Under the pieces are notes generated by a model that saw only the letters and a list, made by a program, of their open reading frames with translations, was not told the DNA's origin and did not search any database. DNA of 39,532 bases, from the IMG/VR virus record IMGVR_UViG_2061766007_001503; one strand, given 5' to 3'. Position 1 is the stretch's first letter, and each line of letters begins with the position of its first letter. The position numbers and the translations under genes were made by a program. Positions 15 through 33,612 of the stretch are shown here, one piece after another. The DNA is from an uncultured virus (IMG/VR IMGVR_UViG_2061766007_001503) (Duplodnaviria; Heunggongvirae; Uroviricota; Caudoviricetes).

Positions 15-719
15 TTAACCAAGTAAACTTAAAACGCCAGCGTTAGCTTGGTTAGCCTGTGCGAGCATTGCCTGGCCTGCCTGTGCAAGGATGTTCGCGT
101 TAGAATACTTAACCATTTCAGTTGCCATATCAGTATCGCGGATCTGACTCTCTGCAGCGGTTGTGTTCTCAACGACATTATTGAGATTATTAATTGTGTG
201 CTCAAGACGGTTCTGAACTGCACCTAAGTTGGAACGCTGACCATTAAGAGTCGTAATAGCGTCCTTAATTGTACTAATAGCACTTGCTGCATCATCTGCA
301 GAGGCGATAGAAAGGCTATCAATTCCAAGACCAGAAGCAGACATAGCGCTGATACTTATTGAAATAGTTTGGCCATTTTCTGCGCCGACCTGGAGACTCT
401 TATTGGTGAAGTTACCATCTAATAACTTCTGTTCATTGAAAGTTGTGGTATCCGCAACTCTATTAATTTCGGCGACAAGAGCCTGAACCTCAGAATCTAA
501 GTATCCACGGTCTTCAGAAGTATTTGTGCCATTAGCGGCCTGAACTGCAAGTTCATTCATTCTCTGAAGCATATCATGAACTTCGTTCAATGCACCTTCT
601 GCAGTCTGAACTGCGGAAATGCCATCTTGCGCGTTACGAGAAGCCTGTGTAAGACCTCTGACCTGTCTACGCATCTTTTCAGAGATTGCTAAACCTGCTG
701 CATCGTCTGCTGCGCGGTT
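15..719 (-). CDS. fliC: Flagellin, minimal D0/D1 type; first ~35 aa lost in the gap at 721-730
   Basis: Frame extends upstream of the track ORF as [17 protein letters not shown]. Contains [56 protein letters not shown] and C-terminal [15 protein letters not shown]. 234 aa visible. Confidence 0.97.
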
Positions 720-730
720 ANNNNNNNNNN

Positions 731-1038
731 TTTAAGCGTCGGCACTCTCTCAAGACCACGATCAAAGTAAGAATTCAACCAAGCGATTGAGGATAATCTT
801 CTTAATTGTCTATGACCTTCCGCATCTTTAGAAATCAAAATGAAGTGATAATATTTTTGTCCAGAATCTCTAGTATTCGTGAGATAAATCTCATTTCCTA
901 TTGCTACTTTAAAATCTGGGTGCTTTTCTTTTATCTCTTGTGCATACTTATTGATTTCGATTGAGCCACTAAGACATTCATGCTCAGTTATTGCGATTCC
1001 CGCAAGTCCAATTTCAATCGCATAATCAATAAGATTTT
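731..1038 (-). CDS. dnaE: DNA polymerase III alpha subunit, N-terminal PHP domain fragment (both ends in gaps)
   Basis: AIEIGLAGIAITEHE, IGNEIY and YYHFILISKDAEGHRQLRRLSS match the PHP motifs of C-family polymerases. Confidence 0.85.
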
Positions 1039-1048
1039 NNNNNNNNNN

Positions 1049-1417
1049 TAAAAAATTTTTGTAATGCCCATCTTTCACTGCAAGGATTTTTTGGAGTTTC
1101 ATATACTATTAATGCAATAGTATCAGCATTAAATTTATTTAAACAATGTTCAAATGCTTTAAAAGTTTTTTCTTTATCAACAAGAGAATAAAGTAGTTGT
1201 TCATATTCAATCATAGTAGGGCATGCGGGAGCCAGGTCTTTGGATTCACATGGGCAGCCACAAGTACCATATTTTTGAACTATAAGTGGATCATAGCGGA
1301 GCCCGCACACTATACCTNNNNNNNNNNNNNNNNNNNNNNNNNNNNNNNNNNNNNNNNNNNNNNNNGTGTAAAATTTCTAATTTGATAAAAATATGAAGTG
1401 TAAATAAAAAAACTCAT
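1049..1417 (-). CDS. DUF488-like phage protein (spans gaps)
   Basis: ATG at 1417 behind an AGAGGT RBS reads MSFFIYTSYFYQIRNF. C-terminal ALIVYETPKNPCSER resembles the DUF488 L.CYE.P...C.R motif. Confidence 0.5.
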
Positions 1418-1429
1418 ATTTGTAACCTC

Positions 1430-2161
1430 TTAATAAATTGTTTGAGATCCTAAAGTACAAAAACAAATTCCACTTCCACCATTTTTAGGGTTATTAGAGC
1501 AACTATCACAAGCTAAATTTGAAAAGTCTTCTCTTTTAAAAAATTTATATGGATCAATAGGGTTAGGATCTATTTCGAGAAAATCTGTAATTGGATTATT
1601 ATTGATTATTTCTTTAAGTTTTTTCTTATATGTAGCTGCATCTATAGTTACTCTATGATAGTTCAGAATTTGACTAAGTAACCCACTTTTAATATTAGCT
1701 CCAAGATTAAATATTTTAAAATCATATACATTTGAAGCTAAATTGATATGATTATGTCTAAATGTATAACCATGATCATGACCATGAATATTCATAGCAA
1801 AATTCTCAAGTCCTTCAAGAGGTTCGTGGCTTAATACAAGTCTATCTGCGATAAATAAAGGACCGGTATATACTTCATCAAAGTGACTAGCTACTTTACT
1901 TAATACATCATGATTACCTGTAATTAAAACTTTATAACATTTTAATTCGTCAAGATAATCTGGGTTACCTACGTCTCCAAGGTGGATTAAAGTATCTCCT
2001 TTCCGCACGTTTTGCTTTATTATTTCCATATGCTCTTGCGGAGTAATCCAATCTGGATCCATAAGTTTACAATCAAAATCATCAAAGTGAGTATCACTGA
2101 TAATATAGACTGAACCCGTAGCACTCCAAGGTTGAAATTTTTCATAAAGTGATTTAATCAT
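1430..2161 (-). CDS. Calcineurin-like metallophosphoesterase
   Basis: Motifs SDTHF, HLGDVG, GNHD, SHEP, HGHDH; Cys-rich C-terminal tail CDSC..GICFC. Confidence 0.85.
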   Translation of the reverse strand: MIKSLYEKFQPWSATGSVYIISDTHFDDFDCKLMDPDWITPQEHMEIIKQNVRKGDTLIHLGDVGNPDYLDELKCYKVLITGNHDVLSKVASHFDEVYTGPLFIADRLVLSHEPLEGLENFAMNIHGHDHGYTFRHNHINLASNVYDFKIFNLGANIKSGLLSQILNYHRVTIDAATYKKKLKEIINNNPITDFLEIDPNPIDPYKFFKREDFSNLACDSCSNNPKNGGSGICFCTLGSQTIY

Positions 2162-2978
2162 CAATGTCCTCCACACTAATAATCTCATATTCTACATCAG
2201 GATCATTTAATCCATAAATTCTAATGCATTCAGCAATAGAAGAAACAGTACAATGTNNNNNNNNNNNNNNNNNNNNNNNNNCATATTTAAAAGTTATATA
2301 TTTCATAATTAATAATTCCTACAAGCATTTTCATAATCTTCAAAATAATAATTTATTTCATCTTCATTTATATAAGGATAACCTTTTAAAAAAGCATTTA
2401 AAGGTTCTTCAAATTCATCAAGGCAACCCCATAAAGAAATAAGCTCTTGAAAAGTATTTATACTTTCAATATCTTCACCAAAAGGATGACNNNNNNNNNN
2501 NNNNNNNNNNNNNNNNNNNNNNNNNNNNNNNNNNNNNNNNNNNNNNNNNNNNNNNNNNNNNNNNNNNNNNNNNNNNNNNNNNNNNNNNNNNNNNNNNNNN
2601 NNNNNNNNNNNNNNNNNNNNNNNNNNNNNNNNNNNNNNNNNNNNNNNNNNNNNNNNNNNNNNNNNNNNNNNNNNNNNNNNNNNNNNNNNNNNNNNNNNNN
2701 NNNNNNNNNNNNNNNNNNNNNNNNNNNNNNNNNNNNNNNNNNNNNNNNNNNNNNNNNNNNNNNNNNNNNNNNNNNNNNNNNNNNNNNNNNNNNNNNNNNN
2801 NNNNNNNNNNNNNNNNNNNNNNNNNNNNNNNNNNNNNNNNNNNNNNNNNNNNNNNNNNNNNNNNNNNNNNNNNNNNNNNNNNNNNNNNNNNNNNNNNNNN
2901 NNNNNNNNNNNNNNNNNNNNNNNNNATCTTTAGAGTTTAATAAATCTGTTGCTTTTTCATAATTCTCAATTTTCATTT

Positions 2979-3398
2979 TTATTCTCCTTTAATTTTCTCC
3001 ATTAATTCTTTAACAACTTTTTCGTGCATTTCATTTGCCGCGAGATCTGGATGCTGGTCATATTTTTCCATAACTTCTTCCCAGGTCTTACCCCAAATAC
3101 CCCACTCGCTATTAAATTCAATTTCTTTTGAAACATCTGCATCATCATATTCATCATAAGAAGATTCAAAAGCCATTGTTTCATACCAACGATTTGCTCC
3201 AATAGTCATTATGTCGCCTTTCTTTTGATAAGGCTCTAAATCATAACGGCATATTTGACAACCAACAGTTGATACAACCCATTTTTTATTTTTATATTCA
3301 AGTAAAGTGTTTCTGCGAAAGACGCAATCTCTAGAACAAATAAAATGTCCAGCCCAACCGCGTTCAGTTCTTTTTACTTTATCCATTATTAATTCCAT
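2979..3398 (-). CDS. Hypothetical phage protein
   Basis: Ungapped 139-aa ORF in a tightly packed minus-strand array; no motif recognised. Confidence 0.7.
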   Translation of the reverse strand: MELIMDKVKRTERGWAGHFICSRDCVFRRNTLLEYKNKKWVVSTVGCQICRYDLEPYQKKGDIMTIGANRWYETMAFESSYDEYDDADVSKEIEFNSEWGIWGKTWEEVMEKYDQHPDLAANEMHEKVVKELMEKIKGE

Positions 3399-3454
3399 CT
3401 TTCATTTTTTTCTATTTCATCAAAAGAAGTCCAACTTCAAATTCTTTTTCTAAT

Positions 3455-3666
3455 TTAAAATTTTCCTTCTACTTCAGTTTCCATATTTTCGAATTCATTT
3501 TTTAAATCTTCTAAAGCCATATCTTCATAACTAACATCTTGATAATCTGTATAAAGATNNNNNNNNNNNNNNNNNNNNNNNNNNNNNNNNNNNNNAGAGC
3601 ATTTAATTGATTTTCTTTTTTTAATAATTCTAATAATCTTTTTTCATTTATAATATAATATTTCAT
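3455..3666 (-). CDS. Small hypothetical protein (spans gap)
   Basis: AGGAGA RBS then MKYYIINEKRLLELLKK; acidic tail after the gap ends ETEVEGKF*. Confidence 0.45.
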
Positions 3667-3742
3667 ATATCTCCTTTTGTGGAAATGGGTACAAGATTTA
3701 GTAATTTTAATATATATCTTTACTAAATGTTGTGATTTTCCG

Positions 3743-4921: not shown

Positions 4922-4950
4922 TTTGTCACCTTTTCATTTCTTTATAATTA

Positions 4951-4979
4951 ATTATATCATATTTTTATAAAAAAATCAA
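4951..4979 (-). promoter_or_regulatory. Sigma-A/70-type promoter upstream of the helicase
   Basis: TTGATT-17 nt-TATAAT with extended -10 TG; overlaps the terminator hairpin of the upstream gene. Confidence 0.7.
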
Positions 4980-5003
4980 GCGGAAGCGCTATGGCCTCCG
5001 CTT
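4970..5003 (-). terminator. Intrinsic terminator after the GIY-YIG gene
   Basis: AAGCGGAGGC-loop-GCTTCCGCTT followed by GATTTTTTT on the minus strand. Confidence 0.55.
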
Positions 5004-5658
5004 AATCAATATATTTCCAATGATAGCCGCCTGAAGTTTGGTAAACTCCTCGACATGCTGCAGCAATATTTTGATGATGTAAATTTAATTCTTGAGCGGC
5101 TTGNNNNNNNNNNNNNTCAATACATAAACATTTTTTTCCTTGAGTATGTTTACCATAATTTGGATTTTTTTCACCTTGCATATCTAAACTATGTTGTTGT
5201 TTCCATTCTTCAGTATGCCTATGTCCTTTAAATAATCCTTGTTTATTTTTTAATCTTTGTCTAGCTCTTTCTTTAGTTTGGATTCCTTTATCAGTTTGGT
5301 ACCATTTTCTTTTTATTATACTCATCCTTTTTTTCCATTCTTCATCAGGTATCCATCCAGATAGGCCATCTCNNNNNNNNNNNNNNNNNNNNNNNNNNNN
5401 NNTATCTTCATAAGCATTATAATATTTAATCCAATATTTTTCTTTTTCATTAATAATTTCATCATATATATCTAAAGGAACTTCTTCAATAATTTCAAAA
5501 GTAAAATTTTCTATTCCANNNNNNNNNNNNNNNNNNNNNNNNNNNNNNNNNNNNNNACTTTTATGTTGAGACCACCTATGTTCAATATTTTTTGCTTTGC
5601 CAATATATAAATTATGAGTAATTATATTTTCTATTTTATAAATTCCAGAATGGCTCAT
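5002..5658 (-). CDS. Free-standing GIY-YIG homing endonuclease with NUMOD3/NUMOD1-type DNA-binding tail
   Basis: SGIYKIEN..LYIGKAKNIEHRW, ENFTFEIIE, FKGHRHTEEWK, GEKNPNYGK, NIAAACRG..SGGYHWKY. Confidence 0.88.
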   Translation of the reverse strand: MSHSGIYKIENIITHNLYIGKAKNIEHRWSQHKSXXXXXXXXXXXXXGIENFTFEIIEEVPLDIYDEIINEKEKYWIKYYNAYEDXXXXXXXXXXXDGLSGWIPDEEWKKRMSIIKRKWYQTDKGIQTKERARQRLKNKQGLFKGHRHTEEWKQQHSLDMQGEKNPNYGKHTQGKKCLCIXXXXXQAAQELNLHHQNIAAACRGVYQTSGGYHWKYID

Positions 5659-5660
5659 TT

Positions 5661-7445
5661 TTAAAATCCCCATGCAGATAATATATTATCATCTTTAATA
5701 ATTTCGTAGTCAATTAAAATTAANNNNNNNNNNNNNNTGTTGCATTTACAAACGGCGTTAATTCTACAACCTTTAGAAAATAATTCAATTTGTTCATCAG
5801 TTCCGCCGAATTGAATAATATCAACATTAGGACAACTGAATTTTAAAGTATTAGATTTCATTATCTTAAATGTAGTATCATTAATAGGAATATTTCTAAT
5901 ATATACAAGAGAACGATCTAAATCTTTTCCCCAATAATCATTCATATCTGCAATTTCAAGAATTTTTTCTCCATCTATTGAATTATAATCCCAAACATAA
6001 TCTACATAATAACTAGGTTCAGAAGAAAGGTCTTTAAGTATTTCATCAGTGTAGTCAATAAATTGATATACATAATCTCCTGCTACTTCTTCATCTCCAG
6101 GATAATCATATCCTAAGCCAAGTCCGAATGCACCTTGATGTCCTGCTGCGAAGATGCAACCGGGGGCTGCCGCGCATATATCTTTAAACATCATATCTGC
6201 ACCATATCCACGAGCAGAACCTTGATAAGAGATTCTTCCCTCATTATCAATAACTTTTGTTAAGATAGCAACAGGACGCTGATATTTTGCCATAAATTTA
6301 TTCGCAATTAAACCAGCTATGTTTCTATCAACTTCGCCTGGTTCAAGTAAGAATAATAAAACTTTATGTTGCATCATGTTGCGCTCTAAAATCAAGTAAT
6401 CTAAATGCTCGAGGCCGGCCTCCTCTGCACGAGTCTGCCTATTCTTGACATTAGTACAAGTTCTAATAGCTTGGTCTACTTTTCTCTCTTGATCACCTAA
6501 TTTATGCCCTCTCTTATTAGAGGGTATCATTTCAAAAGCTTTATACTTTAGCATAGACTCAAAGATTAATTCTTTTTCATCAAGAGTACCACTTCTTACT
6601 ATTGCATTAACAAAAGGAACAATGAAGAATGCAGCGCCAATTGGTGAGAACTGTAATCCATTAATACCAGATGGTTTATAATCTGCTTTTGATAATGGAA
6701 AACTATTTTTTTGAGCCATTTCATATATAAAAGGATTTTTAATATTTTTCTCTTTAAATCCTTCAAAGATTAATGTTTTAGTTTCAACAGAAATCATACT
6801 CATCATATCACCCATATCACCAAGAGCAACTAAATCTAAATATTCATCAGCATAATGGTTTCCGCCAATCATATCTAAATATCTACAAAACTGCCAAGTA
6901 ACACCTACACCGGATAGTTCTTTATTAGGATAATCAGAAAGTTGATTATTAATAATTACTGCGTTTTCTGATATACTATCTGCTTCATGGTGGTCTAATA
7001 CTAAAACATCAATTCCTAAATCTTTAAGTTCTTTATGATATTCATAATCATTACTAGAAGAGTCAGGGAGAATAATTAATTTATACTCACCAACCATATC
7101 CATAATATCTGCAAGCCCATGCTGTTTACCTTCGTGAAGGCAATAATTAATATGTTCTTCTACAAAAGTAGGAAAACAATCATGCAGATAATTGATTAAA
7201 AGCGCAGAGCTGGTAAAGCCATCACAGTCTGCATCAACGACAACAAGGACTGGATCATTTGCGGAAATGTGTACCATAAGCATGCGAGCGCCAGCAGTTA
7301 AGCAATCCTGCCCTAATAATTGCGGTTCATTTATACAAGACATATCCGCTTTTAAATATGTTGCAATATCTTTAACTCCTCTATTGTAAAGAACTTGTGT
7401 TAATGCATCTCTAAATGTTGGAGGATTTATTAACTTGACATTCAT
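5661..7445 (-). CDS. recJ: RecJ-like ssDNA exonuclease (DHH family)
   Basis: DADCDG, LDHHE, LSGVGV, DLVALG..GDM, GSAR and GH..AFG motifs. Confidence 0.92.
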   Translation of the reverse strand: MNVKLINPPTFRDALTQVLYNRGVKDIATYLKADMSCINEPQLLGQDCLTAGARMLMVHISANDPVLVVVDADCDGFTSSALLINYLHDCFPTFVEEHINYCLHEGKQHGLADIMDMVGEYKLIILPDSSSNDYEYHKELKDLGIDVLVLDHHEADSISENAVIINNQLSDYPNKELSGVGVTWQFCRYLDMIGGNHYADEYLDLVALGDMGDMMSMISVETKTLIFEGFKEKNIKNPFIYEMAQKNSFPLSKADYKPSGINGLQFSPIGAAFFIVPFVNAIVRSGTLDEKELIFESMLKYKAFEMIPSNKRGHKLGDQERKVDQAIRTCTNVKNRQTRAEEAGLEHLDYLILERNMMQHKVLLFLLEPGEVDRNIAGLIANKFMAKYQRPVAILTKVIDNEGRISYQGSARGYGADMMFKDICAAAPGCIFAAGHQGAFGLGLGYDYPGDEEVAGDYVYQFIDYTDEILKDLSSEPSYYVDYVWDYNSIDGEKILEIADMNDYWGKDLDRSLVYIRNIPINDTTFKIMKSNTLKFSCPNVDIIQFGGTDEQIELFSKGCRINAVCKCNXXXXXLILIDYEIIKDDNILSAWGF

Positions 7446-16768: not shown

Positions 16769-18728
16769 TTAATCATTTTTCCTACTTTGCCCAAACGCAT
16801 CAATAAATTCAGCTTCAGTGATAATAGGAATACCCGCAGATTGTGCAGCTTTATTTTTTGCAGAAGTTGAAGTAGAATCGTTATTAATTAAATAATTAAC
16901 TTTGGAACTCATACTACCTACAACCTTTCCGCCAATAGACTCAATGTATGCTTTAAGTTCATCACGATTTTTCCATTGAGTTACTTTTCCTGTAATGCAG
17001 AATGTTACACCTGCGGCAGCCTGAGATTCCTGAGTCTGAACTTCTGGCATTGCAAAAGCAAGCATTTCCGCAATTTCATCAGCCTCCGCATAATCAAAAC
17101 TATTAATAGCGTTGCTAATCTCTGGCCCAAAACCGTCAAGTTCTGTCCAATCTCCACCAATTGCAGCTTTGAAGTCCCACCAAGTGGAATAATACTTCAC
17201 AATTTCTTTTGCAACAGTATTACCAACAAGAGGAATACCAATTCCCGCAATATAATTAGCAAGATTTGTACCAAATTTTGCAGCATCAATATTATCAAGA
17301 ATTTTAGTAACAGAAGTTACTCCAAATCCATCTTTTGAAATCCATTCTGTTTTATGGTCTTTCAGATTAAATACATCTTTTAAATTATTAATCCAGCCCC
17401 AATCAATTAGTTTCTCTATTGTTGCCATAGAGATGCCTTTAACATCTAAACCTTTTTTGCCAAGAAAATGATCTACTCTATTTGCAAGTTTACCTTCACA
17501 TTCTGGATTATCACAAACTACATTCAGGACCCCACTACTAGACACGACCACTTTAGTCAATCCACCACAAATAGGGCAATATTCAGGCTTAATATGCTCA
17601 AACAGCACATTATCATTAGGATCATCATTTTTAATCGACCTAATAATTTGGGGAATAATCATATTACTCTTAATCACCCAAATAGGTTGATTAATTTTTG
17701 GAAGTTCTCCAAGTGTCTGATATAAAACTGAAAGATTATGTAATGAAGCTCTTTCAATAATACTATCACCAGTATCAACAGGCTTAAAAATAGCAACAGG
17801 AGTAAGGACACCAGTTCTACCCATTCCCCATTCAATATCGAGTAATTCAGTTTCATATTCTTCATCATAAAACTTATATGCAATAGCATTTCTAAAATGA
17901 TGTTCAGTTCTACCTAAAGACTCGCCATATTTCTTACTTTCAAATTTAAATACATAACCATCAATAGGCCAGAGATTGTGCTCTTCCATTCCATCAAGAA
18001 TATCAATAGCATCATAAATAGTTTCCGCATCACCAACTCTAGGGACGGTAATAAATCCCCATTCATCAAGTTGTTCAAGTCTGCGGAAATTGAAATCAAT
18101 ATTTTCACAGCCTTGAATTAAATCCCAAGCAACAAAACTTAACTTGCGAGAATAGGCTTCCTTTGCAGAAAGTTGCCTAATAGATCCCGCCGCAAAATTT
18201 CTAGGATTAGCATAATTATTTGAAAACTCTCTTTCAAAAGTAACTAAATCACAAACAATTTCACCATCAATAAGTACAGTTTCTTTTGTAGGAATAGTCT
18301 GCGGAATGGAGGAAATAACAAAAGCATTATGAGTAATATCCTCACCCTTTACTCCATTACCTCTTGTTCCAGCTTTTACAAGATGTCCATCTTCATATTT
18401 CAGCCTACAAGAAAGGCCGTCCATCTTAAACATTCCAAACCAATCTTGACCTTTAACAAAAGAAGCAACCTCATCTTTATCTTTTGTTTTATCAAGAGAA
18501 AGCATAGGGTTCGTAGTATATTTAACTTTACTTAACTTCGTTACTACATCAAATTGAATAGACTGGGTTGGAGAATCTGGATAAATAATTCCCGTTTCTT
18601 TTTCCAACTGTTTAAGTTTAAAGTACATACTATCCCATTGACCATCTGTAAGAATGGGAGCACCATCATCATACGCCTTAGTATATACATTTAAAGTATC
18701 GACTAAATTTCTTATATCTCTTGCAATT
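16769..18728 (-). CDS. ligA: NAD+-dependent DNA ligase (start in gap)
   Basis: Frame extends upstream as AY..G.PILTD.QWD. Contains MLSLDK, KMDG, TRGNG..GEDIT, NPRNFAAGS, GRTG.LTPVA, C4 zinc finger and BRCT (FCITG..GGKV). Confidence 0.95.
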
Positions 18729-18831
18729 NNNNNNNNNNNNNNNNNNNNNNNNNNNNNNNNNNNNNNNNNNNNNNNNNNNNNNNNNNNNNNNNNNNNNNNN
18801 NNNNNNNNNNNNNNNNNNNNNNNNNNNNNNN

Positions 18832-19259
18832 ATTTTTATATAATTCTTAGCATATGAATGCTGTACACCATCAAAGAAAAGATACCTTAAAGTATCAATA
18901 TCTTCCAATCCTTCTTCTTCTAAATAAGTTGTAAAAACTGATTGTTCTTCGTTTGNNNNNNNNNNNNNNNNATCTTCATCTGAAACTTTATTTCTATTTT
19001 TCCAAGTGGAAAATTGTTTAGATTGACTTAATACTTCATAAACTGTATCAGGCCACCGGTCTGATAAAACTCGATTTAAAATTACTTCAACAACAGCCAT
19101 TTGACCGTCAGTACATTGATTACCCGCTTCTCTAAAGGTAATTCTTGCAATTAATTCTTTTTCTTCATCAGTTAAAGATTTGATTAATTCTCTATAATCA
19201 TTTGAAACATAATTATCAATTCCTCTTTGGATAGCTTCTTCATCAATTTCGTTAAGAAT
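18832..19259 (-). CDS. SleB/Hydrolase_2 cell-wall hydrolase fragment
   Basis: LIARITFREAGNQ..GQMAVVEVILNRV.S..WPDTV.EV..Q..QFS. Confidence 0.8.
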
Positions 19260-19852
19260 NNNNNNNNNNNNNNNNNNNNNNNNNNNNNNNNNNNNNNNNN
19301 NNNNNNNNNNNNNNNNNNNNNNNNNNNNNNNNNNNNNNNNNNNNNNNNNNNNNNNNNNNNNNNNNNNNNNNNNNNNNNNNNNNNNNNNNNNNNNNNNNNN
19401 NNNNNNNNNNNNNNNNNNNNNNNNNNNNNNNNNNNNNNNNNNNNNNNNNNNNNNNNNNNNNNNNNNNNNNNNNNNNNNNNNNNNNNNNNNNNNNNNNNNN
19501 NNNNNNNNNNNNNNNNNNNNNNNNNNNNNNNNNNNNNNNNNNNNNNNNNNNNNNNNNNNNNNNNNNNNNNNNNNNNNNNNNNNNNNNNNNNNNNNNNNNN
19601 NNNNNNNNNNNNNNNNNNNNNNNNNNNNNNNNNNNNNNNNNNNNNNNNNNNNNNNNNNNNNNNNNNNNNNNNNNNNNNNNNNNNNNNNNNNNNNNNNNNN
19701 NNNNNNNNNNNNNNNNNNNNNNNNNNNNNNNNNNNNNNNNNNNNNNNNNNNNNNNNNNNNNNNNNNNNNNNNNNNNNNNNNNNNNNNNNNNNNNNNNNNN
19801 NNNNNNNNNNNNNNNNNNNNNNNNNNNNNNNNNNNNNNNNNNNNNNNNNNNN

Positions 19853-21989
19853 ATGATACCCTTTCCGCCACGGGCTTGAATTGTAAGGTCTTTAAGTTCG
19901 ACCTTCTTACCTGTTCCTTTTGTCGTGATAATACCAACAGTATCAGTTGCCTTATGGATAGGCAATGCTGCAACCACTTCATCACCTTCCGCTAAATTAA
20001 TACCTTTAACACCCATTGTAACTCGACCAACAGGATTGATACTTTTGGTTTCAAAGTGAATACTCATACCTTTACGAGTAATCATTACCAAATCTTCTTC
20101 ATCTTGGAAAGAAACAGAAGCAACAGAATCGCCTTCTTTAATTTTTAAAGCAACAATACCGCTATTCTTTTTAACCCCAAGATATTCATTTAAATAAGTC
20201 TTCTTAACCATACCTTCTTTTGTAATAAAAATTGCAAATTTCGGTAAAGTTTTTCTATGTAAAGATGTTACTGCAATAACTTGTTCATTCTGATCCAGCT
20301 TGATGATAGAACTAATCGGCACTCCTTTTGTAGTATTATTTCCATCAGGGATATTATCTACTACAATACGATACATTTTACCAAGATTAGTAAAGAACAT
20401 CATATAATCAACTGTATTTGTCTTAATAGTAGACATAATAGCATCATCAGTTGATTTAACACCAACTCCGCCACGACGCTGAACCTTGAAAGAAGATACA
20501 GGTACTTTCTTAATTAATCCAGACTCTGTTGTTACTACAACAACATCAATAGGAACTACTTCTTGAATTTCTTTTTCTTCTTTAGGGACTTCAATTTGTG
20601 CTAATTGAGTGCGTCTTGCATCACCATATTTCTTTACAATATCTTCAAGGCGTTTTTGAATTTCTGCCATTTNNNNNNNNNNNNNNNNNNNNNNNNNNNN
20701 NNNNNNNNNNNNNNNNNNNNNNNNNNNNNNNNNNNNNNNNNNNNNNNNNNNGCTAAACTTGATAATCTCATAGCTAAAATTGCTTTAGCCTGAGCTTCTG
20801 AAATACCATACTTCTCAATTAATGCAACTTTAGCCGTTGCACTACTTTCAGATTTTTTAATTAATGCAATAACATTATCAATATCTTCAAGAGCAATAAG
20901 AAGTCCTTCAACAATATGTAATCTTTCTTTTGCTTTGATTAAATCAAAATTAATTTCTTTAATTAAACAATCAATATTATGATTAATATAAACTTCAATT
21001 GCCTGCTTAAGATTTAACTCAGTAGGAGTTTTATCAATAAGTGCAACCTGATTATATGAAATTGAAGTCTGAAGATTAGTTTTACTATATAATTTATTTG
21101 CGATCACATCAGGGTTAATACCCTTCCCGCATTCAATTACAATTCTCAAACCTTTCTTATTACTTTCATCACGGACTTCTGTGATGCCTTCAATTTCTTT
21201 AGCATCACAGACCTCTCCAATTTGAGAGATAATTCCTTCTACAGTTTCTCCATAAGGAATTTCATAGAATACAATATTATTTTTTTCAACCTTATAACAA
21301 CCTCTAACCTTTACAGAACCATGTCCAGTTTTCATAATTGCGGGAATGTCATTCTTATTAATGATAACTCCGCCAGTAGGGAAGTCCGGACCGGGCAATG
21401 TAGGCTCATTTCCGTTCATGACTGCGTAGATTGCTTCCGCAACTTCCTTGAGATTATGCGGAAGCCAATTACAAGCCATAGCTACACCGATACCAGTGTT
21501 AGGATTGCACAAGAGGTTAGGAAAGATTGCTGGTAAAGTAACTGGCTCTTCAAGTGTTTCATCATAGTTAGGAATAAAATCAACATTCTTTTTCTTTAAG
21601 CCTTGAAGAAGTCCATCTTCCGCAAGTTTACTAAGTCTTGCTTCTGTGTAACGAGATGCGGCAGGGCCATCACCAATCTGGTTTCCGTTGCTACCATGCC
21701 AGTCGATAAGCGGATACCGCATAACCCACCATTGAGAAAGTCGTACCATAGCTCCGTAGATTGATGAGTCACCATGAGGATGATACTTACCCATGACATC
21801 ACCAACAATTCTAGCCGCCTTAACATGAGGTTTAGAATATGTTCTTCCTTCCTCAAAAGCAGACCAGAGAATTCTTTTAGCTACTGGCTTAAGACCAGAT
21901 TTAGCATCTGGAATTGCACGATCAGTATTAACAGCAACCGCATACTCTATGAAATTTGTACCTAATTCATGTCTTACATCATTCTGCAT
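19853..21989 (-). CDS. gyrA: DNA gyrase subunit A (spans gaps)
   Basis: DAKSGLKPV, YHPHGDSSIY, AASRYTEARL (catalytic Tyr), GPDFPTGG, and pinwheel repeats with GyrA-box QRRGGVG. Confidence 0.95.
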
Positions 21990-23844
21990 TGTATGTGGCC
22001 TCCTGTGAATGTTCTTTAATATATATCTTTCTTGCGGTTACGCCTTGCCCCATCAATTGCTCAAATAAAATATCGGTTTCTCTTATATCTTCAACTGTAA
22101 TTTGCTTAATAATTCTGTTATTAGGATCAGTTAAAGTTTCTTCAGTTTCTTCAACAGACATTTCACCAAGACCTTTAAGTCTATTTACAGTATATTTCTT
22201 ACCCTGATTAGCTCTCTTAAATTCTTCAAGCGCTTCATCATTTTTGAGATACTTATACTCTTTACCTATTGTAATCTTATAAAGAGGAGGAACTCCCGCA
22301 TAAATATAACCATCTTGAATTAACTGCGGGCAAAAATTCCAAATGAAAGTATAGAAAAGGTTCTTAATATGAGCGCCATCAACATCAGCATCGCTCATAA
22401 TAATAATTTTTCCATATCTCAAATCTTCTTTATCATAAGTAACTTTCATTGTTTTCGGATCAATTCTTAAACCAAATGCTTCAATCATTGTCATAATCTC
22501 TGCATTTTTCTGAATCTGCGCCAAAGTTGCTTTCTGCGTATTAAGAATTTTTCCTCTAACAGGCAAAACCGCCTGTGTTGCGTTATCTCTTGCAAGTTTG
22601 ATATTACCAGAAGCACTATCTCCTTCTGTAATATAGATTTCACATTCCATTCTATTTTTGGAATTACAATCTGCAAGTTTACTATCAAACTTAACTACTT
22701 TTTCTTTTTTCTTCTTTTCAGTTTCACGAGCTGCGTCTCTTGCTTTCTTAGCCGCTTCTCGCGCCTTACGAGCGGCAATTGCTTTGTCAAAAATTACCTT
22801 TATATCTTTTTCATTTATCAAAAGCCAATTTGTTAAATTTTCAGTTATAAAACTTATTTCTGGTTTAGTCTCAATTTTTGTTACACGAGATTTAACCTGA
22901 GCATCATAAGAAACAGAAGGAGCAGTATAATTAAATACAATATAAATTCCTTCTTGAATATCATCGCCAGTAAGGTTTTCATCCTTCTCTTTAAGCCAAC
23001 CGCGCTCTCTAAAGAACTTGTTCATTTCTCTTGTAAGAGTAGTTTTAAGCTGTGTAATATGAGCGCCGGTATCTGTTAAACCAGTGTTTACATATGGAAC
23101 AATAGTAGATGAATAATTTGCGGTATAGGTTAATACAAGGTCAAGCTTGTACTTATCTTCCTGACCGCTCACTACAAGTCTGTTATTAATAATCTCTTTA
23201 TCTTTAACAGCTTCATCTACTAAATCATTAAGACCATTCTTTGAGGAATAAGTCTCTTTTGCTCCGTTATAATCAAGATTAATAATTAGACCAGGACATA
23301 AGCAACTTATAGTCTTAAATAATGTACGAATTTTATTTATTTCAACTTCTGTATGAGTGAAAAATTCTTCTGAAGGTTGCCATTTAACAATAGTCCCATT
23401 ATTTTCTGCTAATGCATTACCAACTTTTCTATCTTCAAAGACTCCTTCTTTAAACCAAATATGTTCATATTTTTTATCTCTAATAGTTTCAACTTGTAAC
23501 CAATGAGATAAAAATGTAGTAATTTTACTACCAATACCAAATGAACCAAGTGAAGTTCCTTCGTAGCTACCATCTTCACGATACTTACCAGAGGTGTTAA
23601 GTACGCTAAATGCTGCTTCAAGAATTGTTTTACCATCATCGCGGAAACTATTAGGAATAAATCCTTGTCCATAATCTCTTACAGTGATGATGTCTTTATC
23701 AATAGTGACATCAATTTGATTACCATGCCCTGCATTAAACTCATCCACCGCATTAGAGAAAATTTCAATAAGCAACTGCGTTGAATATGTGGTATCACCA
23801 GCATAAACACCAGGACGAAGTCTGGTAAATTCAAGGGGTGAAAG
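21979..23844 (-). CDS. gyrB: DNA gyrase subunit B (start in gap)
   Basis: RLRPGVY.G, EIFSNAVDE, DYGQG, G.FGIG, EGDSA, PVRGKILN, MSDADVDGAHI, RLKGLGEM. Confidence 0.95.
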   Translation of the reverse strand, partial: LSPLEFTRLRPGVYAGDTTYSTQLLIEIFSNAVDEFNAGHGNQIDVTIDKDIITVRDYGQGFIPNSFRDDGKTILEAAFSVLNTSGKYREDGSYEGTSLGSFGIGSKITTFLSHWLQVETIRDKKYEHIWFKEGVFEDRKVGNALAENNGTIVKWQPSEEFFTHTEVEINKIRTLFKTISCLCPGLIINLDYNGAKETYSSKNGLNDLVDEAVKDKEIINNRLVVSGQEDKYKLDLVLTYTANYSSTIVPYVNTGLTDTGAHITQLKTTLTREMNKFFRERGWLKEKDENLTGDDIQEGIYIVFNYTAPSVSYDAQVKSRVTKIETKPEISFITENLTNWLLINEKDIKVIFDKAIAARKAREAAKKARDAARETEKKKKEKVVKFDSKLADCNSKNRMECEIYITEGDSASGNIKLARDNATQAVLPVRGKILNTQKATLAQIQKNAEIMTMIEAFGLRIDPKTMKVTYDKEDLRYGKIIIMSDADVDGAHIKNLFYTFIWNFCPQLIQDGYIYAGVPPLYKITIGKEYKYLKNDEALEEFKRANQGKKYTVNRLKGLGEMSVEETEETLTDPNNRIIKQITVEDIRETDILFEQLMGQGVTARKIYIKEHSQEATYNAE

Positions 23845-24125
23845 NNNNNNNNNNNNNNNNNNNNNNNNNNNNNNNNNNNNNNNNNNNNNNNNNNNNNNNN
23901 NNNNNNNNNNNNNNNNNNNNNNNNNNNNNNNNNNNNNNNNNNNNNNNNNNNNNNNNNNNNNNNNNNNNNNNNNNNNNNNNNNNNNNNNNNNNNNNNNNNN
24001 NNNNNNNNNNNNNNNNNNNNNNNNNNNNNNNNNNNNNNNNNNNNNNNNNNNNNNNNNNNNNNNNNNNNNNNNNNNNNNNNNNNNNNNNNNNNNNNNNNNN
24101 NNNNNNNNNNNNNNNNNNNNNNNNN

Positions 24126-24396
24126 CCGCGTAGGCGGAATCTGAAATAATATTATAATGATACATTGGATCTTTGTTGGCTAATTCAAGGACATGAATAA
24201 TAGCCTCTAATTCCATACGATTATTTGTAGTTTCATCAAAATTTTTCTTAAAAGCATAATTTAACATATATGAAACAGATTGCAGTTCATGAATTCTCGA
24301 AACTCGAACAACACCAAAACCACCTGGCCCAGGGTTCCCATGGCAGCCGCCATCACAATAATATGTTAATTGTGCTTTCATAAAGTTCTCTCCCAT
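24126..24396 (-). CDS. rnhA: Ribonuclease HI, N-terminal part
   Basis: YCDGGCHGNPGPGGFG, TTNNRMELEAII, IISDSAY. Confidence 0.9.
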
Positions 24397-24440
24397 CAAA
24401 AATATCCTTTCCTAGCTCTTTTCTAGTTCTTTCTATAATA

Positions 24441-29664: not shown

Positions 29665-29732
29665 ATTATAACCTCCTTTAACTGCGGCAGCGCAGGGATC
29701 CCAAGTCTAGATGACCCGATCCCCGCATTATT

Positions 29733-30983: not shown

Positions 30984-30996
30984 TGTTTTTTCCTCT

Positions 30997-31200: not shown

Positions 31201-31215
31201 TTATTTTACCTTTCT

Positions 31216-31244
31216 ATTATACCAAAAATTTTAATAAAAATCAA
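31216..31244 (-). promoter_or_regulatory. Sigma-A-type promoter for the RNA-ligase cluster
   Basis: TTGATT-17 nt-TATAAT with TG extension. Confidence 0.7.
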
Positions 31245-32069
31245 TTATTCGTCTTTACCTTCAAAATATTTAACTTCAAAAGTATCTAAATCTAATAATG
31301 CGGCTCTATTTGTTACAATAGTACAAAGATCCAAATCAATTTTATGACCTCCGCAATAAGTAAGAATCTCTGGCGTTGGCATTCTATCAATTCCTTCATC
31401 ATACACCCACATTCTCATATAAATATAATCTTCTCTTGTTGCAGGCGGTTTATCAATATATTCATATAAATATCTTAAATATTGTACTGGCGTATGACCG
31501 TGAATCATATAGCATTTTTCTGGATCACAATTTACAATATGATTAACTCCTTCATCCCAGGGATCGTTAAAATGCTCTCTATCCCAGGTGGCATCATGTT
31601 TATGCCTACAGACAGCAAATGGAGAATGACCTGCGTGTTCCATCATAATAGTCTGTCCATTTGTATTATTATAAACTTCAAAAGTGGATAAATCTCTTTT
31701 CATAATTAATTTAAGATTAATTATATCTTGAATAGAGATTTCAAAAAGTTTATTATAAACTATATCTCCGCCATTGGTAATCCAATCATCAAGTAAGCGG
31801 TGGTATTTTTCATCATAAAAATCTAAATCATCAATACGCTGTTTGATAATATGCGGGAGGCAGTCCATCATCATTTCTTCGTGGTTTCCGCGTAGAAAGC
31901 GTACTCTATGATCATTCAAGAGTAAAAACAATATCTCTAAACCATGTGGGCCTCTGTCAATAGCATCACCTAAAAAATAAAGTGTATCAGTTTCGTCCAT
32001 ATAGTTTAAAATCTGTTTTGCGATATTCAGATTTCCGTGCCAGTCAGCGCTGGCAAAATGTTTATTCAT
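31245..32069 (-). CDS. PPP-family (lambda-like) Ser/Thr phosphatase / metallophosphoesterase
   Basis: ADWHG, LGDAIDRGP, LRGNHE, HAG, HGHTP, IDLD. Confidence 0.88.
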   Translation of the reverse strand: MNKHFASADWHGNLNIAKQILNYMDETDTLYFLGDAIDRGPHGLEILFLLLNDHRVRFLRGNHEEMMMDCLPHIIKQRIDDLDFYDEKYHRLLDDWITNGGDIVYNKLFEISIQDIINLKLIMKRDLSTFEVYNNTNGQTIMMEHAGHSPFAVCRHKHDATWDREHFNDPWDEGVNHIVNCDPEKCYMIHGHTPVQYLRYLYEYIDKPPATREDYIYMRMWVYDEGIDRMPTPEILTYCGGHKIDLDLCTIVTNRAALLDLDTFEVKYFEGKDE

Positions 32070-32307
32070 AAANNNNNNNNNNNNNNNNNNNNNNNNNNNN
32101 NNNNNNNNNNNNNNNNNNNNNNNNNNNNNNNNNNNNNNNNNNNNNNNNNNNNNNNNNNNNNNNNNNNNNNNNNNNNNNNNNNNNNNNNNNNNNNNNNNNN
32201 NNNNNNNNNNNNNNNNNNNNNNNNNNNNNNNNNNNNNNNNNNNNNNNNNNNNNNNNNNNNNNNNNNNNNNNNNNNNNNNNNNNNNNNNNNNNNNNNNNNN
32301 NNNNNNN

Positions 32308-33567
32308 ACTTTGTCTTATAAGCAAGATGCTTGGAAAAGTTTGAATAAAGATGTTTATAGTTTTTTTAATAAGTTATCTAATCTGAGATTAACATCAAGC
32401 TATCAAAAGGGAGAAACAACTTCTTCTAATGAAAAAGTAGCTTCCGCATCTGGTAAAGTTCAAGGTCAGCATTTTCTTGAAGTTAAGAAGTTAGCTACGC
32501 AGACTTTCTTAACAGGAAGTAGAGTTGAACAAACTGAACCTGCGGGCGTCTCGGGAGCACTGACCGTGACAGTAGGTGGACAAGAGAAAGAGTTAGATAT
32601 TACTCCAGATATGTCGATGGCGGAAATTGCTAGAAAACTTACTGAAGCGGGCTTGGTGGCCAATTTTGATGAAAATAATGCGAGATTATTTATTGCATCA
32701 AAAACTACTGGTCAGCATAGTGACTTCACGATCAGCGGTGACGCTGGAGTGCTAGAGACTATCGGGCTAGGGACCGCCGCCACAAAGATGCCAGGTCAAG
32801 ATGCATCTATTTCATTAAATGGTGCTGATTTTACTTTTGATACAAACAATTTTTCAGTTAATGGAATTAATTTCTCAATTGAATCCACTGGTTCTACTGT
32901 TATAGGTCATAAAACAAATGATAAAATTACAGAAGCTATTAAATCATTGATTACTGATTATAATGCTTTAATTAAGAAGATTGATCATTCCTATAACAAT
33001 GATTCTGCAAAGGGTTATTCTCCATTAACAGATGAAGAAAAAGAAACTTTGACGGATCGGCAAATCACAGAATGGGAAGATAAACTTAAAGAAGGTGCTT
33101 TAAGTAAAGACAGAACATTAGGTGATTTAAGTACATTATTAAAAACTACAATGAGTTCTTTTTCTGTTGACGGTATGAATTTAACTTCATTAGGAATTAC
33201 TTTAGGTGGTTACTTTACCACAGAGAAAGACGAGCGTGGGGTTTATAATATTAATGATGAAAAGCTTGAGAAAGCCATTTCCGCAGATCCAGATAAAGTA
33301 ATTAATTTCTTTTCTAAATTATCATCAACATTATATGATAAGTTAAATGAAAAAATGAAGTCTTCAAGTACAAATAGTGTTTATACTGTTTATAATGATA
33401 AGCAGATTAAACAGCAATTACTTGATTATGATAAAAAGATTTCAGAATGGGAAAAGAAAATAACGAAATATGAAGATAAATATTATAGCCAGTTTGCTAA
33501 AATGGAAAAAGTTTTAGCAAAATCACAAAATCAAGCAAATTATTTAAGTAACTTTTTTGGTATTTAA
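32308..33567 (+). CDS. fliD: Flagellar filament cap protein FliD/HAP2 (first ~40 aa in gap)
   Basis: KQDAWKSLN, VKKLA, RLFIASKTTG, GQDASISLNG, NNFSVNGI, DYNALI, YSPLTDEEK..QITEWEDK.K.G.L, G..NINDEKLEKAI..DP, EDKYYSQFAKMEKVLAK..NQ..YL. Confidence 0.93.
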   Translation, partial: TLSYKQDAWKSLNKDVYSFFNKLSNLRLTSSYQKGETTSSNEKVASASGKVQGQHFLEVKKLATQTFLTGSRVEQTEPAGVSGALTVTVGGQEKELDITPDMSMAEIARKLTEAGLVANFDENNARLFIASKTTGQHSDFTISGDAGVLETIGLGTAATKMPGQDASISLNGADFTFDTNNFSVNGINFSIESTGSTVIGHKTNDKITEAIKSLITDYNALIKKIDHSYNNDSAKGYSPLTDEEKETLTDRQITEWEDKLKEGALSKDRTLGDLSTLLKTTMSSFSVDGMNLTSLGITLGGYFTTEKDERGVYNINDEKLEKAISADPDKVINFFSKLSSTLYDKLNEKMKSSSTNSVYTVYNDKQIKQQLLDYDKKISEWEKKITKYEDKYYSQFAKMEKVLAKSQNQANYLSNFFGI

Positions 33568-33572
33568 GTAAT

Positions 33573-33612
33573 AAAAAAGTGGGGAGAGCATTTCTGCTCT
33601 CCCCTTTCTTTT
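33573..33612. terminator. Bidirectional intrinsic terminator between convergent fliD and DUF2828 genes
   Basis: A-tract, GGGGAGAGCA-tttc-TGCTCTCCCC, T-tract. Confidence 0.85.

Follow-up and report, generated by a model that had tools for sequence, protein, structure and literature searches.

Flagellin and FliD genes in a large rumen phage lineage, and a possible role for them in filament growth on the host flagellum

Flagella propel gut bacteria, and they also act as a major receptor for phages and as a major immune signal. A viral scaffold from IMG/VR (IMGVR_UViG_2061766007_001503, uncultured Caudoviricetes), whose 39,532 nucleotides are called the window here, has a flagellin gene and a gene for the filament cap FliD. 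The locus raises the question of whether these two genes belong to the phage, whether they form a pair, and what a phage might do with them. A first-pass annotation, made from the letters alone, had proposed that the phage supplies a matched filament and cap for the host machine to assemble. The features that bear on this are collected in Table 1.

Table 1. Features of the window around and between the flagellin and FliD genes
Feature	Position	Strand	Remarks
Flagellin fragment, ~residues 37-270 of a ~270-aa D0/D1-type flagellin	15..719	-	Pfam; stop codon 15-17; 5' end in gap
Scaffold gap, 10 N	721..730	.	Truncates flagellin 5' end
DNA polymerase III alpha PHP-domain fragment, 308 bp	731..1038	-	Pfam PHP 19-102/164; order probably wrong
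Gene A, 3' part, conserved, function unassigned	1049..1317	-	blastn to G001 55995-56263
Sigma-A-type promoter (TTGA.. -35, TGnTATAAT extended -10)	4926..4979	-	Before RecD-like helicase gene; sequence pattern
Scaffold gap, 235 N	32073..32307	.	Covers FliD codons 1-38 and FliD promoter and leader
FliD (filament cap, HAP2), residues 39-456 and stop	32308..33567	+	Pfam FliD_N and FliD_C
Intrinsic-terminator-like hairpin and T-run	33565..33616	+	Between FliD and convergent DUF2828/DUF7788 gene; RNA fold

The presence of both genes among phage genes is confirmed by Pfam profiles, with both domains found in each protein. For the flagellin (PF00669 and PF00700), Flagellin_N matches with E = 7.3e-37 (127 bits, cut-off 26.6) over profile positions 35-139 of 139, and Flagellin_C with E = 6.8e-27 (94.1 bits, cut-off 23) over positions 2-86 of 86. 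The frame opens directly at the N-run, hence about 36 N-terminal residues are missing; the C-terminus reads GVLSLLG, as in Lachnospiraceae flagellins. The protein shares 81% identity with its intact 270-aa counterpart in a relative, G001, where Flagellin_N is complete (1-139/139) and Flagellin_C is present. That intact relative, not the truncated window copy, was compared with the solved flagellin chain 9hpz_A (270 aa, from an entry with 22 chains), and residues 1-269 align to 1-269 with E = 8.2e-101. Over six pairs of flagellins, the middle (~residues 141-185) is 47-58% identical versus 76-94% in the terminal regions.

In the window FliD (PF02465 and PF07195; frame scanned, 32311-33567), FliD_C is matched from 1 to 235 of 236 with E = 1.8e-30 (106.6 bits, cut-off 25.4), and FliD_N from 32 to 96 of 97 with E = 6.8e-9 (36.7 bits, cut-off 24.8). 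Its missing N-terminus is supplied by P0001, a 456-aa entry of a protein collection in which all 418 residues visible in the window recur with 100% identity. G001 FliD, to which the window protein is 67-68% identical, has both domains complete (FliD_N 1-96/97, and FliD_C). By sequence alone the protein has no PDB match at E 0.001. The structure model of P0001 (pLDDT 87.6) has helices at 14-63 and 401-454 and beta domains at 70-242, and Foldseek aligns it to 9gnz_R (E = 1.6e-19, TM 0.65), 6sih_A (TM 0.69) and 5h5v_C (E = 6.4e-17). Entry 9gnz is Salmonella FliD in a cap-filament complex. As modeled, then, the window-identical protein has the FliD fold of long terminal helices and beta-rich head domains.

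The window has 48 N-runs and is a gapped scaffold of a ~140-kb phage. The N-runs differ in length from the matching stretches of G001 (79 vs 92 bases, and 51 vs 91 bases), which makes them scaffold gaps, as a mask would keep the true length. The piece of polymerase gene beside the flagellin is 92.9% identical to G001 54505-54812, and the order of fragment and flagellin at 15-1038 is swapped relative to G001 and another relative, L003, both of which have the fragment on the opposite flank of the flagellin. Contigs with this piece extend 50-128 bases at both ends into sequence that does not flank it in the window, so the piece was probably mis-ordered in scaffolding, and the doubt that the first-pass annotation had raised over the junction at 721-730 was justified. 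The relatives nevertheless place the flagellin at this locus. Gene A precedes the flagellin in G001, L003 and the distant relative G008, in which it is recognized by tblastn at 40% identity and adjoins the flagellin; a Pfam search with gene A gave no match even at E 5.

These joints invite the explanation that the flagellin, FliD or both are cellular DNA joined by scaffolding or mis-binning. Beside the flagellin are a 10-N gap and the mis-ordered fragment, no contig of runs X1-X4 spans 721-730 or 1039-1048, and the conserved parts of the flagellin gather reads of many organisms, to a summed depth of up to 470. We find this explanation hardly credible, and already contradicted, since gap-free relatives carry both genes at the same loci (the flagellin in G001 and L003; FliD in G001, G002 and G006) and G001 is closed by terminal repeats. 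Also against it, the G008 flagellin has an in-frame TAG at a conserved Gln and adjoins a phage tRNA(CUA), and flagellin contigs of run X1 that are 100% identical have depths of 7.2 and 8.0 versus 5.8-7.7 for neighboring phage contigs, a weak comparison with one figure per contig.

G001 measures 141,935 bp, carries direct terminal repeats and is rated 100% complete by CheckV. Window positions 1049-36108 are collinear with G001 55995-93441, and because this complete genome has both genes intact, the window genes are phage genes. Pfam content of G001 includes a tape-measure domain, PolIII alpha, NrdD, a T7 gp5.9-like protein and Tad8, and its PHROGs include portal, terminase-like, virion structural and tail-fiber families. 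The structural module lies at 5.5-46.6 kb; flagellin and FliD are far from it, in a replication/early block, spaced 34 kb apart in G001 and 32 kb apart in the window. Co-occurrence of the two genes in relatives, which the annotation had asked about, is seen in four large related viral contigs, G001, G002, G006 and G008, and a fifth related contig, the 28-kb fragment G007, has FliD only. Both genes are real and phage-owned, not contamination. Related genomes measure 120-147 kb, and Phage_integrase and Resolvase profiles find nothing in the four contigs. The window is probably part of a ~140-kb non-integrating phage, probably virulent, of rumen Lachnospiraceae, with the host taken from flagellin similarity and habitat only.

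The observation that nothing else flagellar is encoded also holds. Among the 41 window ORFs scanned with Pfam, the identified neighbors are a RecD-like helicase, a DnaB-like helicase, DHH, GyrA/GyrB, NAD ligase, RNA ligase, PhoH, an amidase, a cell-wall hydrolase and GIY-YIG nucleases; there are three tRNAs, and other flagellar, export, chemotaxis, FliS, FliW and CsrA families are absent from these ORFs. CsrA and FliW are found in none of the four related contigs, and FliS gives there only sub-threshold matches inside the FliD ORF, none over cut-off. TnpB/TldR (OrfB_IS605) is found in none of the four contigs, nor among the 41 window ORFs or the 130 ORFs of G001; Cas12f1-like_TNB is over cut-off in none of the four, with two sub-threshold matches far from the flagellin.

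As to whether the genes form a pair, the trees give them separate histories, both trees coming from quick searches with SH-aLRT support only. Phage-type FliD forms one clade with 100% SH-aLRT, comprising 30 rows, 26 of them without known genomic context. Phage flagellins occupy at least 3 places among Lachnospiraceae flagellins, and are 75-85% identical to those of rumen Lachnospiraceae; phage FliD has 30-35% identity to FliD from those five bacteria whose flagellins are closest, so that compatibility of the phage cap with host flagellin is putative. Judged from these trees, the phage FliD clade is old, the flagellin is host-like, and the pair was not acquired together, so the reading of filament and cap as a matched set that came in as one is not supported. 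Both genes are under purifying selection: pN is 0.15-0.34 versus pS of 0.55-0.74 in all 12 pairs compared. Together with the intact copies in G001 and the presence of both genes in four related contigs, G001 among them, this supports that the two genes are the phage's own.

All anatomy of promoters and leaders is taken from relatives (49-81% protein identity) because the window's own 5' regions are in gaps. A sigma-D promoter couples bacterial flagellin to completion of the basal body. A sigma-D-type motif is found upstream of 72 of 107 bacterial flagellins, and of none of the 4 flagellins or 4 FliDs from phages. The strict pattern for a sigma-A extended -10 is found before G001 flagellin, G002 FliD and G006 FliD, while G001 FliD has a near match only. 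The G002 and G006 flagellins, 2 of the 4 in phages, come directly after a tRNA with no recognizable promoter of their own, and the same pattern search finds none before the L003 flagellin. The class of promoter that precedes flagellin and FliD in relatives is the one found in the window before the helicase gene; it recurs in L001, L002 and L006, and the pattern has 61 matches in G001.

In Firmicutes, CsrA and FliW keep flagellin translation in step with export through a leader that has a GGA hairpin and a Shine-Dalgarno (SD) sequence. Of 111 flagellin leaders, 91 have a GGA-loop hairpin (shuffled mean 11.5, maximum 21), and the 4/4 from phages are among them; 3/3 phage FliD leaders have it too, and in the leaders of both phage genes in relatives, it is accompanied by an AAGGAGG ribosome site. 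The phage leaders resemble the CsrA type, with CsrA binding putative, and something other than CsrA may account for the retention of the hairpin. A leader before FliD is new in the phages: bacterial fliD in 5/5 genomes comes straight after flaG and has none to itself. Phage FliD stands alone between a phosphatase gene and the DUF2828 gene, outside any flaG-fliD-fliS operon context, as the sole plus-strand gene in a block of minus-strand genes. The terminator-like hairpin after it folds at -22.7 kcal/mol (z -5.71), and 0 of 200 shuffles are as stable. Unlike fliD in the bacterial flaG-fliD-fliS arrangement, the gene is monocistronic and has a promoter, a leader and a terminator to itself.

The reading we lean towards is that these are early phage genes whose products are assembled by the host flagellar export machine, as a minimal set for filament growth or regrowth. 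Host RNA polymerase would transcribe both genes soon after infection from the phage's host-sigma-A-type promoters, host FliS, FliW and CsrA would handle the products, and the existing flagellar type III export apparatus would secrete phage flagellin and FliD. New caps would form, and the filament would grow on hook-basal bodies already present. Flagellin and FliD would be the exact set for growing a filament, or for regrowing one after shearing; regrowth of sheared filaments requires a new FliD cap (PMC5430758). The purpose we favor is that the infected cell would stay motile once host flagellar gene expression fails. More tentatively, the lineage may have long kept its own cap and repeatedly swapped in the flagellin of its current host, leaving sigma-D control but staying on the CsrA-FliW checkpoint; the two genes would then be a virus-run motility module with the cap as a host-independent adaptor.

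The main alternative purpose would be an altered filament surface, with the assembled filament, different in its middle region and cap, blocking adsorption of competitors or of the phage's own progeny to infected cells and debris. The middle region is indeed the divergent part of the flagellin, phage FliD is very unlike host FliD, and the known phage flagellin system alters filament properties including recognition (PMC13418256). We consider such remodeling unlikely: phage flagellins nest among bacterial ones and are no more divergent than bacterial paralogues are from each other, the use of flagella as a receptor by the window phage or its competitors would be hypothetical, and no repressor of host flagellin was found (TnpB/TldR over cut-off in 0/4 contigs), therefore old filaments would remain.

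A regulatory use, in which the flagellin, the GGA leaders or both titrate host FliW, FliS or CsrA and shift flagellin synthesis or the CsrA regulon, would suit the CsrA-type leaders on both phage mRNAs, the acquisition of one by FliD in the phage lineage, and the lack of phage-encoded FliW, CsrA and FliS. Hag, FliW and CsrA form a homeostatic circuit that is described as hypersensitive to intracellular Hag (PMC6529632). We rate this use as quite unlikely, as two complete structural proteins would be needless for it, both are conserved throughout, including the terminal helices for export and polymerization, and pN is far below pS across the full length. To our knowledge, FliD has no role in the FliW-CsrA circuit, which also speaks against it. 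A use outside the flagellum, as virion-associated fibers or as free monomers released as decoys or signals, with no extension of the host filament, might be read from the flagellin's match to a PHROG family of unassigned function (phrog_16088). FliD has no PHROG match, both genes are on early-type promoters in the replication/early block far from the G001 structural module, and their products retain N- and C-terminal segments characteristic of exported flagellar axial proteins, so that we regard it as very improbable.

How, then, does assembly by the host machine, our preferred reading, compare with what is known? The annotation knew of no characterized phage system of this form, and here it is superseded, as prophage fliC_P with the repressor TldR is described as replacing the host filament in Enterobacter (10.1101/2023.11.30.569447; Nat Microbiol 2026, PMC13418256). 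Shared with it are a phage-encoded flagellin, conserved D0/D1 and a divergent middle region. In that system, the host machine is described as assembling phage flagellin into a filament of phage origin, which is what we infer here. It belongs, by that account, to temperate lambda-like phages of Proteobacteria, with an RNA-guided TnpB-derived repressor of host fliC and a FliA/sigma-28-type promoter kept on fliC_P; the present genomes are of 120-147 kb with a probable Lachnospiraceae host, and no integrase, resolvase, TnpB/TldR or sigma-D motif was found. The fliC_P-TldR system has, by that account, no phage FliD, whereas one is always present here.

The two genes also appear as "lytic-specific fliC and fliD" in a paper on the rumen virome (Microbiome 2025;13:14, PMC11740651), from the same habitat and attributed to lytic viruses, which are probably the same phage group; the listing is a catalog entry, and genome context, phylogeny, regulation and mechanism are absent from its fliC/fliD passage. 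Compared with flagellar loci of Lachnospiraceae, the flagellin is close in sequence with the same GGA-hairpin and SD leader, and FliD has the same domains and fold. Those flaG-fliD-fliS loci have a sigma-D promoter and Hag-FliW-CsrA control, whereas the phage genes are unlinked, without sigma-D motifs and without flaG, fliS or fliW neighbors.

One phage route to changing flagella is proven, that of a prophage flagellin with an RNA-guided repressor. The lineage of the window suggests a second, in lytic-type phages that infect abundant Firmicutes of the gut and rumen, in which both parts for filament growth would be supplied, the host assembly checkpoint escaped and translational feedback kept. 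The old phage cap beside freshly host-like flagellins is a natural experiment in cap-flagellin compatibility. If the proposed route is true, the motility of infected cells would be under viral control, with consequences for phage dispersal and the behavior of rumen bacteria, and the idea of auxiliary genes would be widened from metabolism to locomotion.

The window encodes a flagellin and a FliD filament cap, and Pfam, run on 41 window ORFs, detects no further flagellar family among them. The first-pass annotation had said as much, and the profile searches confirm it with one addition, which is that gaps cut both genes. The flagellin frame starts right at the 10-N gap 721-730, and the 38 absent FliD codons fall within the 235-N gap 32073-32307. 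P0001, a 456-aa entry of a protein collection, equals the window FliD at 418 of 418 visible residues. The other Pfam families are a RecD-like helicase, DHH phosphoesterase, DnaB-like helicase, AAA_24 ATPase, ClpP-like protease, NAD-dependent DNA ligase, GyrA, GyrB, RNase H, amidase and cell-wall hydrolase domains, PhoH, a kinase (AAA_33), RNA ligase, metallophosphatases, GIY-YIG nucleases, and a DUF2828/DUF7788 protein. There are three tRNAs, the - strand holds nearly all genes, and G+C is 33.6% over the 33,126 determined bases out of 39,532. We read the 48 N-runs as scaffold gaps and not as length-true masks, since lengths and frames differ from the complete relative G001: runs of 79 and 51 bases correspond to 92 and 91 bases there, and frames shift across some runs, as they do in gyrA and the AAA_24 gene. 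An apparent RNase H-GyrB fusion in the window is an artefact of reading through such a run, and these are two genes in G001.

Coordinates of features in the window and in related viral contigs
Source	Feature	Coordinates	Strand	Details
Window	Flagellin	15-719	-	Flagellin_N E = 7.3e-37, profile 35-139 of 139; Flagellin_C E = 6.8e-27, 2-86 of 86
Window	PolIII alpha piece	731-1038		308 bp, 92.9% identical to G001
Window	Gene A, 3' part	1049-1317	-	
Window	Sigma-A-type promoter	4926-4979		before helicase gene
Window	GIY-YIG nuclease	5002-5673		
Window	RNase H-GyrB read-through	21979-24399		806 aa, across N-run 23845-24125
Window	FliD	32311-33567	+	FliD_C E = 1.8e-30, 1-235 of 236; FliD_N 32-96 of 97
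Window	DUF2828/DUF7788 gene	33615-35000		convergent with FliD
Window	BspA-type/DUF285 repeat region	36629-39531		mostly N
G001	Flagellin	54999-55811	-	intact, 270 aa; Flagellin_N 1-139 of 139
G001	T7 gp5.9-like RecBCD inhibitor	56725-57000		
G001	ADP-ribosylglycohydrolase	60698-61498		
G001	GyrB	79064-80974		
G001	RNase H	81031-81549		
G001	FliD	89459-90832	+	intact, 457 aa; FliD_N 1-96 of 97
G001	DUF2828/DUF7788 gene	90867-92318		phrog_850 'RNA-binding protein', E = 9e-110
G001	BspA-type/DUF285 repeat region	94287-98888		
G001	Tad8-like anti-Thoeris protein	129314-129550		
G002	tmRNA	L002 1075-1419		ARAGORN; tag peptide AKKIVSFPTKVALAA
G008	Flagellin	L108 1495-2697		400 aa
G008	tRNA, anticodon CUA (CTA)	L108 2913-2986		

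By blastn, window 1049-36108 is collinear with 55995-93441 of G001 (IMGVR_UViG_3300021399_000111), mostly at 66-92% nucleotide identity. G001 has 141,935 bp, direct terminal repeats and a completeness rating of 100%. Of the 166 ORFs called in it (minimum 60 aa), 130 were scanned; the others are 31 below 75 aa and 5 that span locus boundaries. Pfam identifies a 2,960-aa tape-measure protein, PolIII alpha, NrdD, dUTPase, a T7 gp5.9-like protein and Tad8, and PHROGs (32 ORFs) a portal, a terminase-like protein, virion structural proteins, tail fibre and tail proteins, and a sigma factor. Both flagellar genes are also on three more large viral contigs, G002 (146,105 bp), G006 (122,314 bp) and the more distant relative G008 (147,056 bp), whose FliD is only 23% identical; G007, a 28-kb fragment of another relative, has FliD and no flagellin in its assembled part. 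Integrase and resolvase families are found in 0 of the 4 large contigs, hence the lineage is probably virulent. Past window 36108, the matching G001 position jumps from 93441 to 114149, and after the tRNA cluster both sequences encode large proteins with BspA-type leucine-rich and DUF285 repeats. Among the G001 genes are one for a T7 gp5.9-like RecBCD inhibitor and one for a Tad8-like anti-Thoeris protein. The window site corresponding to the G001 ADP-ribosylglycohydrolase holds a GIY-YIG nuclease gene, and in G002 a tmRNA gene sits among tRNA genes. The DUF2828/DUF7788 gene next to FliD adjoins RNA ligase, kinase and phosphatase genes, which would possibly make the surroundings of FliD an RNA-repair cluster.

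The annotated phage collection of 50,697 records has no close relative: blastn with window 16769-24399 (7.6 kb) gives 11 records, each at no more than 5% coverage. No isolate phage among the records has this FliD, and tblastn with the G001 FliD and flagellin finds none with both genes. Its matches are confined to fecal fragments named 'Bacteriophage sp.' that bear no annotation, to small 'phage' contigs of Listeria, Salmonella and E. coli, and, for flagellin, to Bacillus phage EZ-2018a at 50% identity. A FliD scan of viral contigs with a single protein query has no match; scan A1 recovers G001 and two distant FliDs, L103 and L104, and scan A2 recovers G001, G002 and G006.

The flagellin is found at two types of locus. 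In G001 and the 11-kb contig L003, the coding-strand order is gene A (conserved, of unknown function), flagellin, PolIII alpha; the window shares this locus, and the G008 flagellin adjoins gene A. In G002 and G006 the flagellin follows a tRNA, between RNA ligase and kinase genes. Gene A was considered as a hidden chaperone and rejected, for Pfam matches nothing in it at a cut-off as lax as E = 5; it is a landmark only, since in G002 it adjoins PolIII alpha without a flagellin. In the window a PolIII alpha piece sits between gene A and the flagellin, and 10 N bound each piece at this end of the scaffold. Contigs of four public bovine gut metagenome runs (X1-X4), one of which may be the window's source, were aligned to window 1-3500, and none bridges 721-730 or 1039-1048. 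Those containing 731-1038 extend 50-128 bases at both ends in letters not adjacent in the window. Most simply, a small contig would have been placed out of order at the end of the scaffold. Contigs identical to the flagellin have depths of 7.2 and 8.0 versus 5.8-7.7 for neighbouring phage contigs, which is weak evidence at one figure per contig. Assembly breaks at the flagellin because its conserved stretches gather depth from other organisms, summing to as much as 470-fold.

A FliD search of 5.8 billion proteins gives, as its best 27 matches, proteins of 452-463 aa that are 46-100% identical, several on contigs of 122-145 kb; next come proteins of 486-729 aa with a local identity of 36-51%, two of which carry the name Lachnospiraceae FliD. 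A tree of 130 rows (4 phage, 5 bacterial, 119 unlabelled, L103 and L104; quick IQ-TREE search with SH-aLRT support) joins the 4 phage FliDs with 26 unlabelled rows in a single clade (support 100%, stem 0.39), to which L103 is sister. FliD in the five bacterial genomes whose flagellins come closest to those of the phages is 519-578 aa and 30-35% identical to phage FliD, and between groups bacterial FliDs are themselves just 36-39% identical. For the window flagellin, thousands of proteins lie at 76-83% identity, and 77 loci in species-representative genomes have flagellins 61-78% identical to it; almost all belong to Lachnospiraceae, and rumen or gut MAGs account for many. In the flagellin tree (108 rows, with one 201-aa fragment dropped and the split or short matches L004-L006 left out), the four phage flagellins need at least 3 label changes forced by starred branches. 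The window and G001 pair together (support 90), L003 falls within a rumen Lachnospiraceae group (98%), and G002 is in a 96%-supported group, 85% identical to a sheep-omasum MAG flagellin. The single FliD clade, the scattered flagellin placements and the two flagellin loci together argue for a cap long established in the phage lineage and for repeated capture or replacement of the flagellin, which resembles that of the likely hosts. The matched pair of the first-pass annotation, in the sense of co-acquisition, is accordingly not borne out.

Flagellin terminal regions are 76-94% identical, and the middle (about residues 141-185) 47-58%. In all 12 pairwise comparisons pN (0.15-0.34) is far below pS (0.55-0.74); since synonymous sites are saturated at those pS values, dN/dS as such was set aside. 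We take function to be maintained in both phage genes. Over its whole length the G001 flagellin aligns with a 270-aa flagellin chain of known structure, 9hpz_A (22 copies in the entry), at E = 8.2e-101. For FliD, searching by sequence alone recovers no solved structure at E = 0.001. The full-length AlphaFold model, from a 28-sequence alignment, has a mean pLDDT of 87.6, with long terminal helices at 14-63 and 401-454 and beta-rich head domains; Foldseek matches it to 9gnz_R of the Salmonella cap-filament complex (E = 1.6e-19, TM 0.65), to 6sih_A (TM 0.69) and to E. coli D1-D3 5h5v. The G008 flagellin (IMGVR_UViG_3300033463_000022) has one in-frame TAG, at conserved Gln55 (...EKMR-Q-...), and about 220 bases downstream is a tRNA with the CUA anticodon. 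These two features suggest that TAG means Gln in this phage, with its flagellin written in its own recoded dialect. In G002 (L017-L024), 73% of the sequence lies in stop-free frames of 100 codons or more under code 11, 88.5% with TAG as sense and 81% in a TGA control, versus 85% and 89% of G001 under code 11 and with TAG as sense; there are hints of TAG recoding in parts of G002.

Promoters and leaders are described from relatives; the 5' regions of both window genes lie in gaps. A sigma-D pattern, TAA[AG]-N13-18-CCGATA at most 250 bases upstream, is found at 72 of 107 distinct bacterial flagellin regions, and at 0 of 4 phage flagellins and 0 of 4 phage FliDs; bare CCGATA[TA] is present in 87 of the 107. 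A strict sigma-A pattern (TTGACA-like, spacer, extended -10 TGnTATAAT) is found at none of those 107, at one of four phage flagellins (G001) and at two of four phage FliDs (G002 and G006), and the G001 FliD has a near match. G001 has 61 instances of this promoter class, most of them preceding early and replication genes on the - strand. The G002 and G006 flagellins directly follow tRNA. At its 3' end the window FliD has a strong terminator-like hairpin (-22.7 kcal/mol, z -5.71), indicating that it is a self-contained unit. FliS signals were rejected as sub-threshold and inside the FliD ORF.

A GGA-loop hairpin precedes the ribosome site in 91 of 111 distinct flagellin leaders, including 4 of 4 from phages, versus a mean of 11.5 and a maximum of 21 in 200 shuffles; 71 different hairpin sequences keep the pairing, and the ribosome site A[AGT]GGAGG is present in 105 of the 111. 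All 3 phage FliD leaders have a GGA-apex hairpin with an 8-10 bp stem, 24-29 bases from the start, plus ACAAGGAGGT. The bacterial fliD, in 5 of 5 bacteria, is within a few bases of flaG and has no leader of its own. Leaders of the phage relatives are hence predicted to have the two-GGA CsrA-type layout, in loop and ribosome site. In Firmicutes, CsrA represses flagellin translation through a two-site leader layout, and FliW and flagellin close a feedback loop. The CsrA-FliW-flagellin feedback is a topic of PMC6529632 and PMC8523840. Genes for CsrA and FliW are found in 0 of the 4 phage contigs.

The first-pass annotation knew of no characterised phage system of this form, and a precedent exists. 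In Enterobacter prophages, a phage-encoded flagellin replaces the host filament by way of the RNA-guided repressor TldR; the passages on that system mention fliD solely as a host gene (10.1101/2023.11.30.569447; PMC13418256). The rumen phage lineage is like that fliC_P-TldR system in outline and is not a member, since no TnpB/TldR, integrase or sigma-28-type promoter was found in it. A rumen virome study includes 'lytic-specific fliC and fliD' in its set of auxiliary genes (PMC11740651). Among the matches listed in the literature on phage-encoded flagellin, fliD and auxiliary genes, and flagellar AMGs in viromes, there is no functional study of a phage FliD. What stands of the proposed fliC plus fliD phage module is that it is real and conserved across large related viral contigs; its co-acquisition and its lack of precedent do not.

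Other uses have to be weighed against assembly into host filaments. That the pair is an artefact is scarcely credible: although gaps cut both window genes, a complete relative carries both intact. A non-flagellar use is improbable. PHROGs includes one flagellin-like family, whose function is unknown (phrog_16088), and no FliD family. Titration of FliW, FliS or CsrA would touch the CsrA-type leaders, and we regard it as rather unlikely, with function maintained in a cap as well as a flagellin. A surface or receptor change has the Enterobacter filament replacement as a likeness and flagellins resembling those of likely hosts on the other side, and is unlikely though worth keeping in mind.

Assembly of the phage products into host filaments, with motility upkeep as the favoured purpose, has in our estimate a somewhat better than even chance. 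The phage would supply flagellin and FliD from early promoters independent of the flagellar sigma factor, and the host would be left to do the chaperoning, translational feedback and export. Growing a filament further on a hook-basal body that is already there takes just these two proteins. Shearing removes the cap, and regrowth has to wait for a new one made of FliD (PMC5430758), so the two genes may amount to a minimal kit for filament growth and regrowth, by which the phage would keep its host motile.
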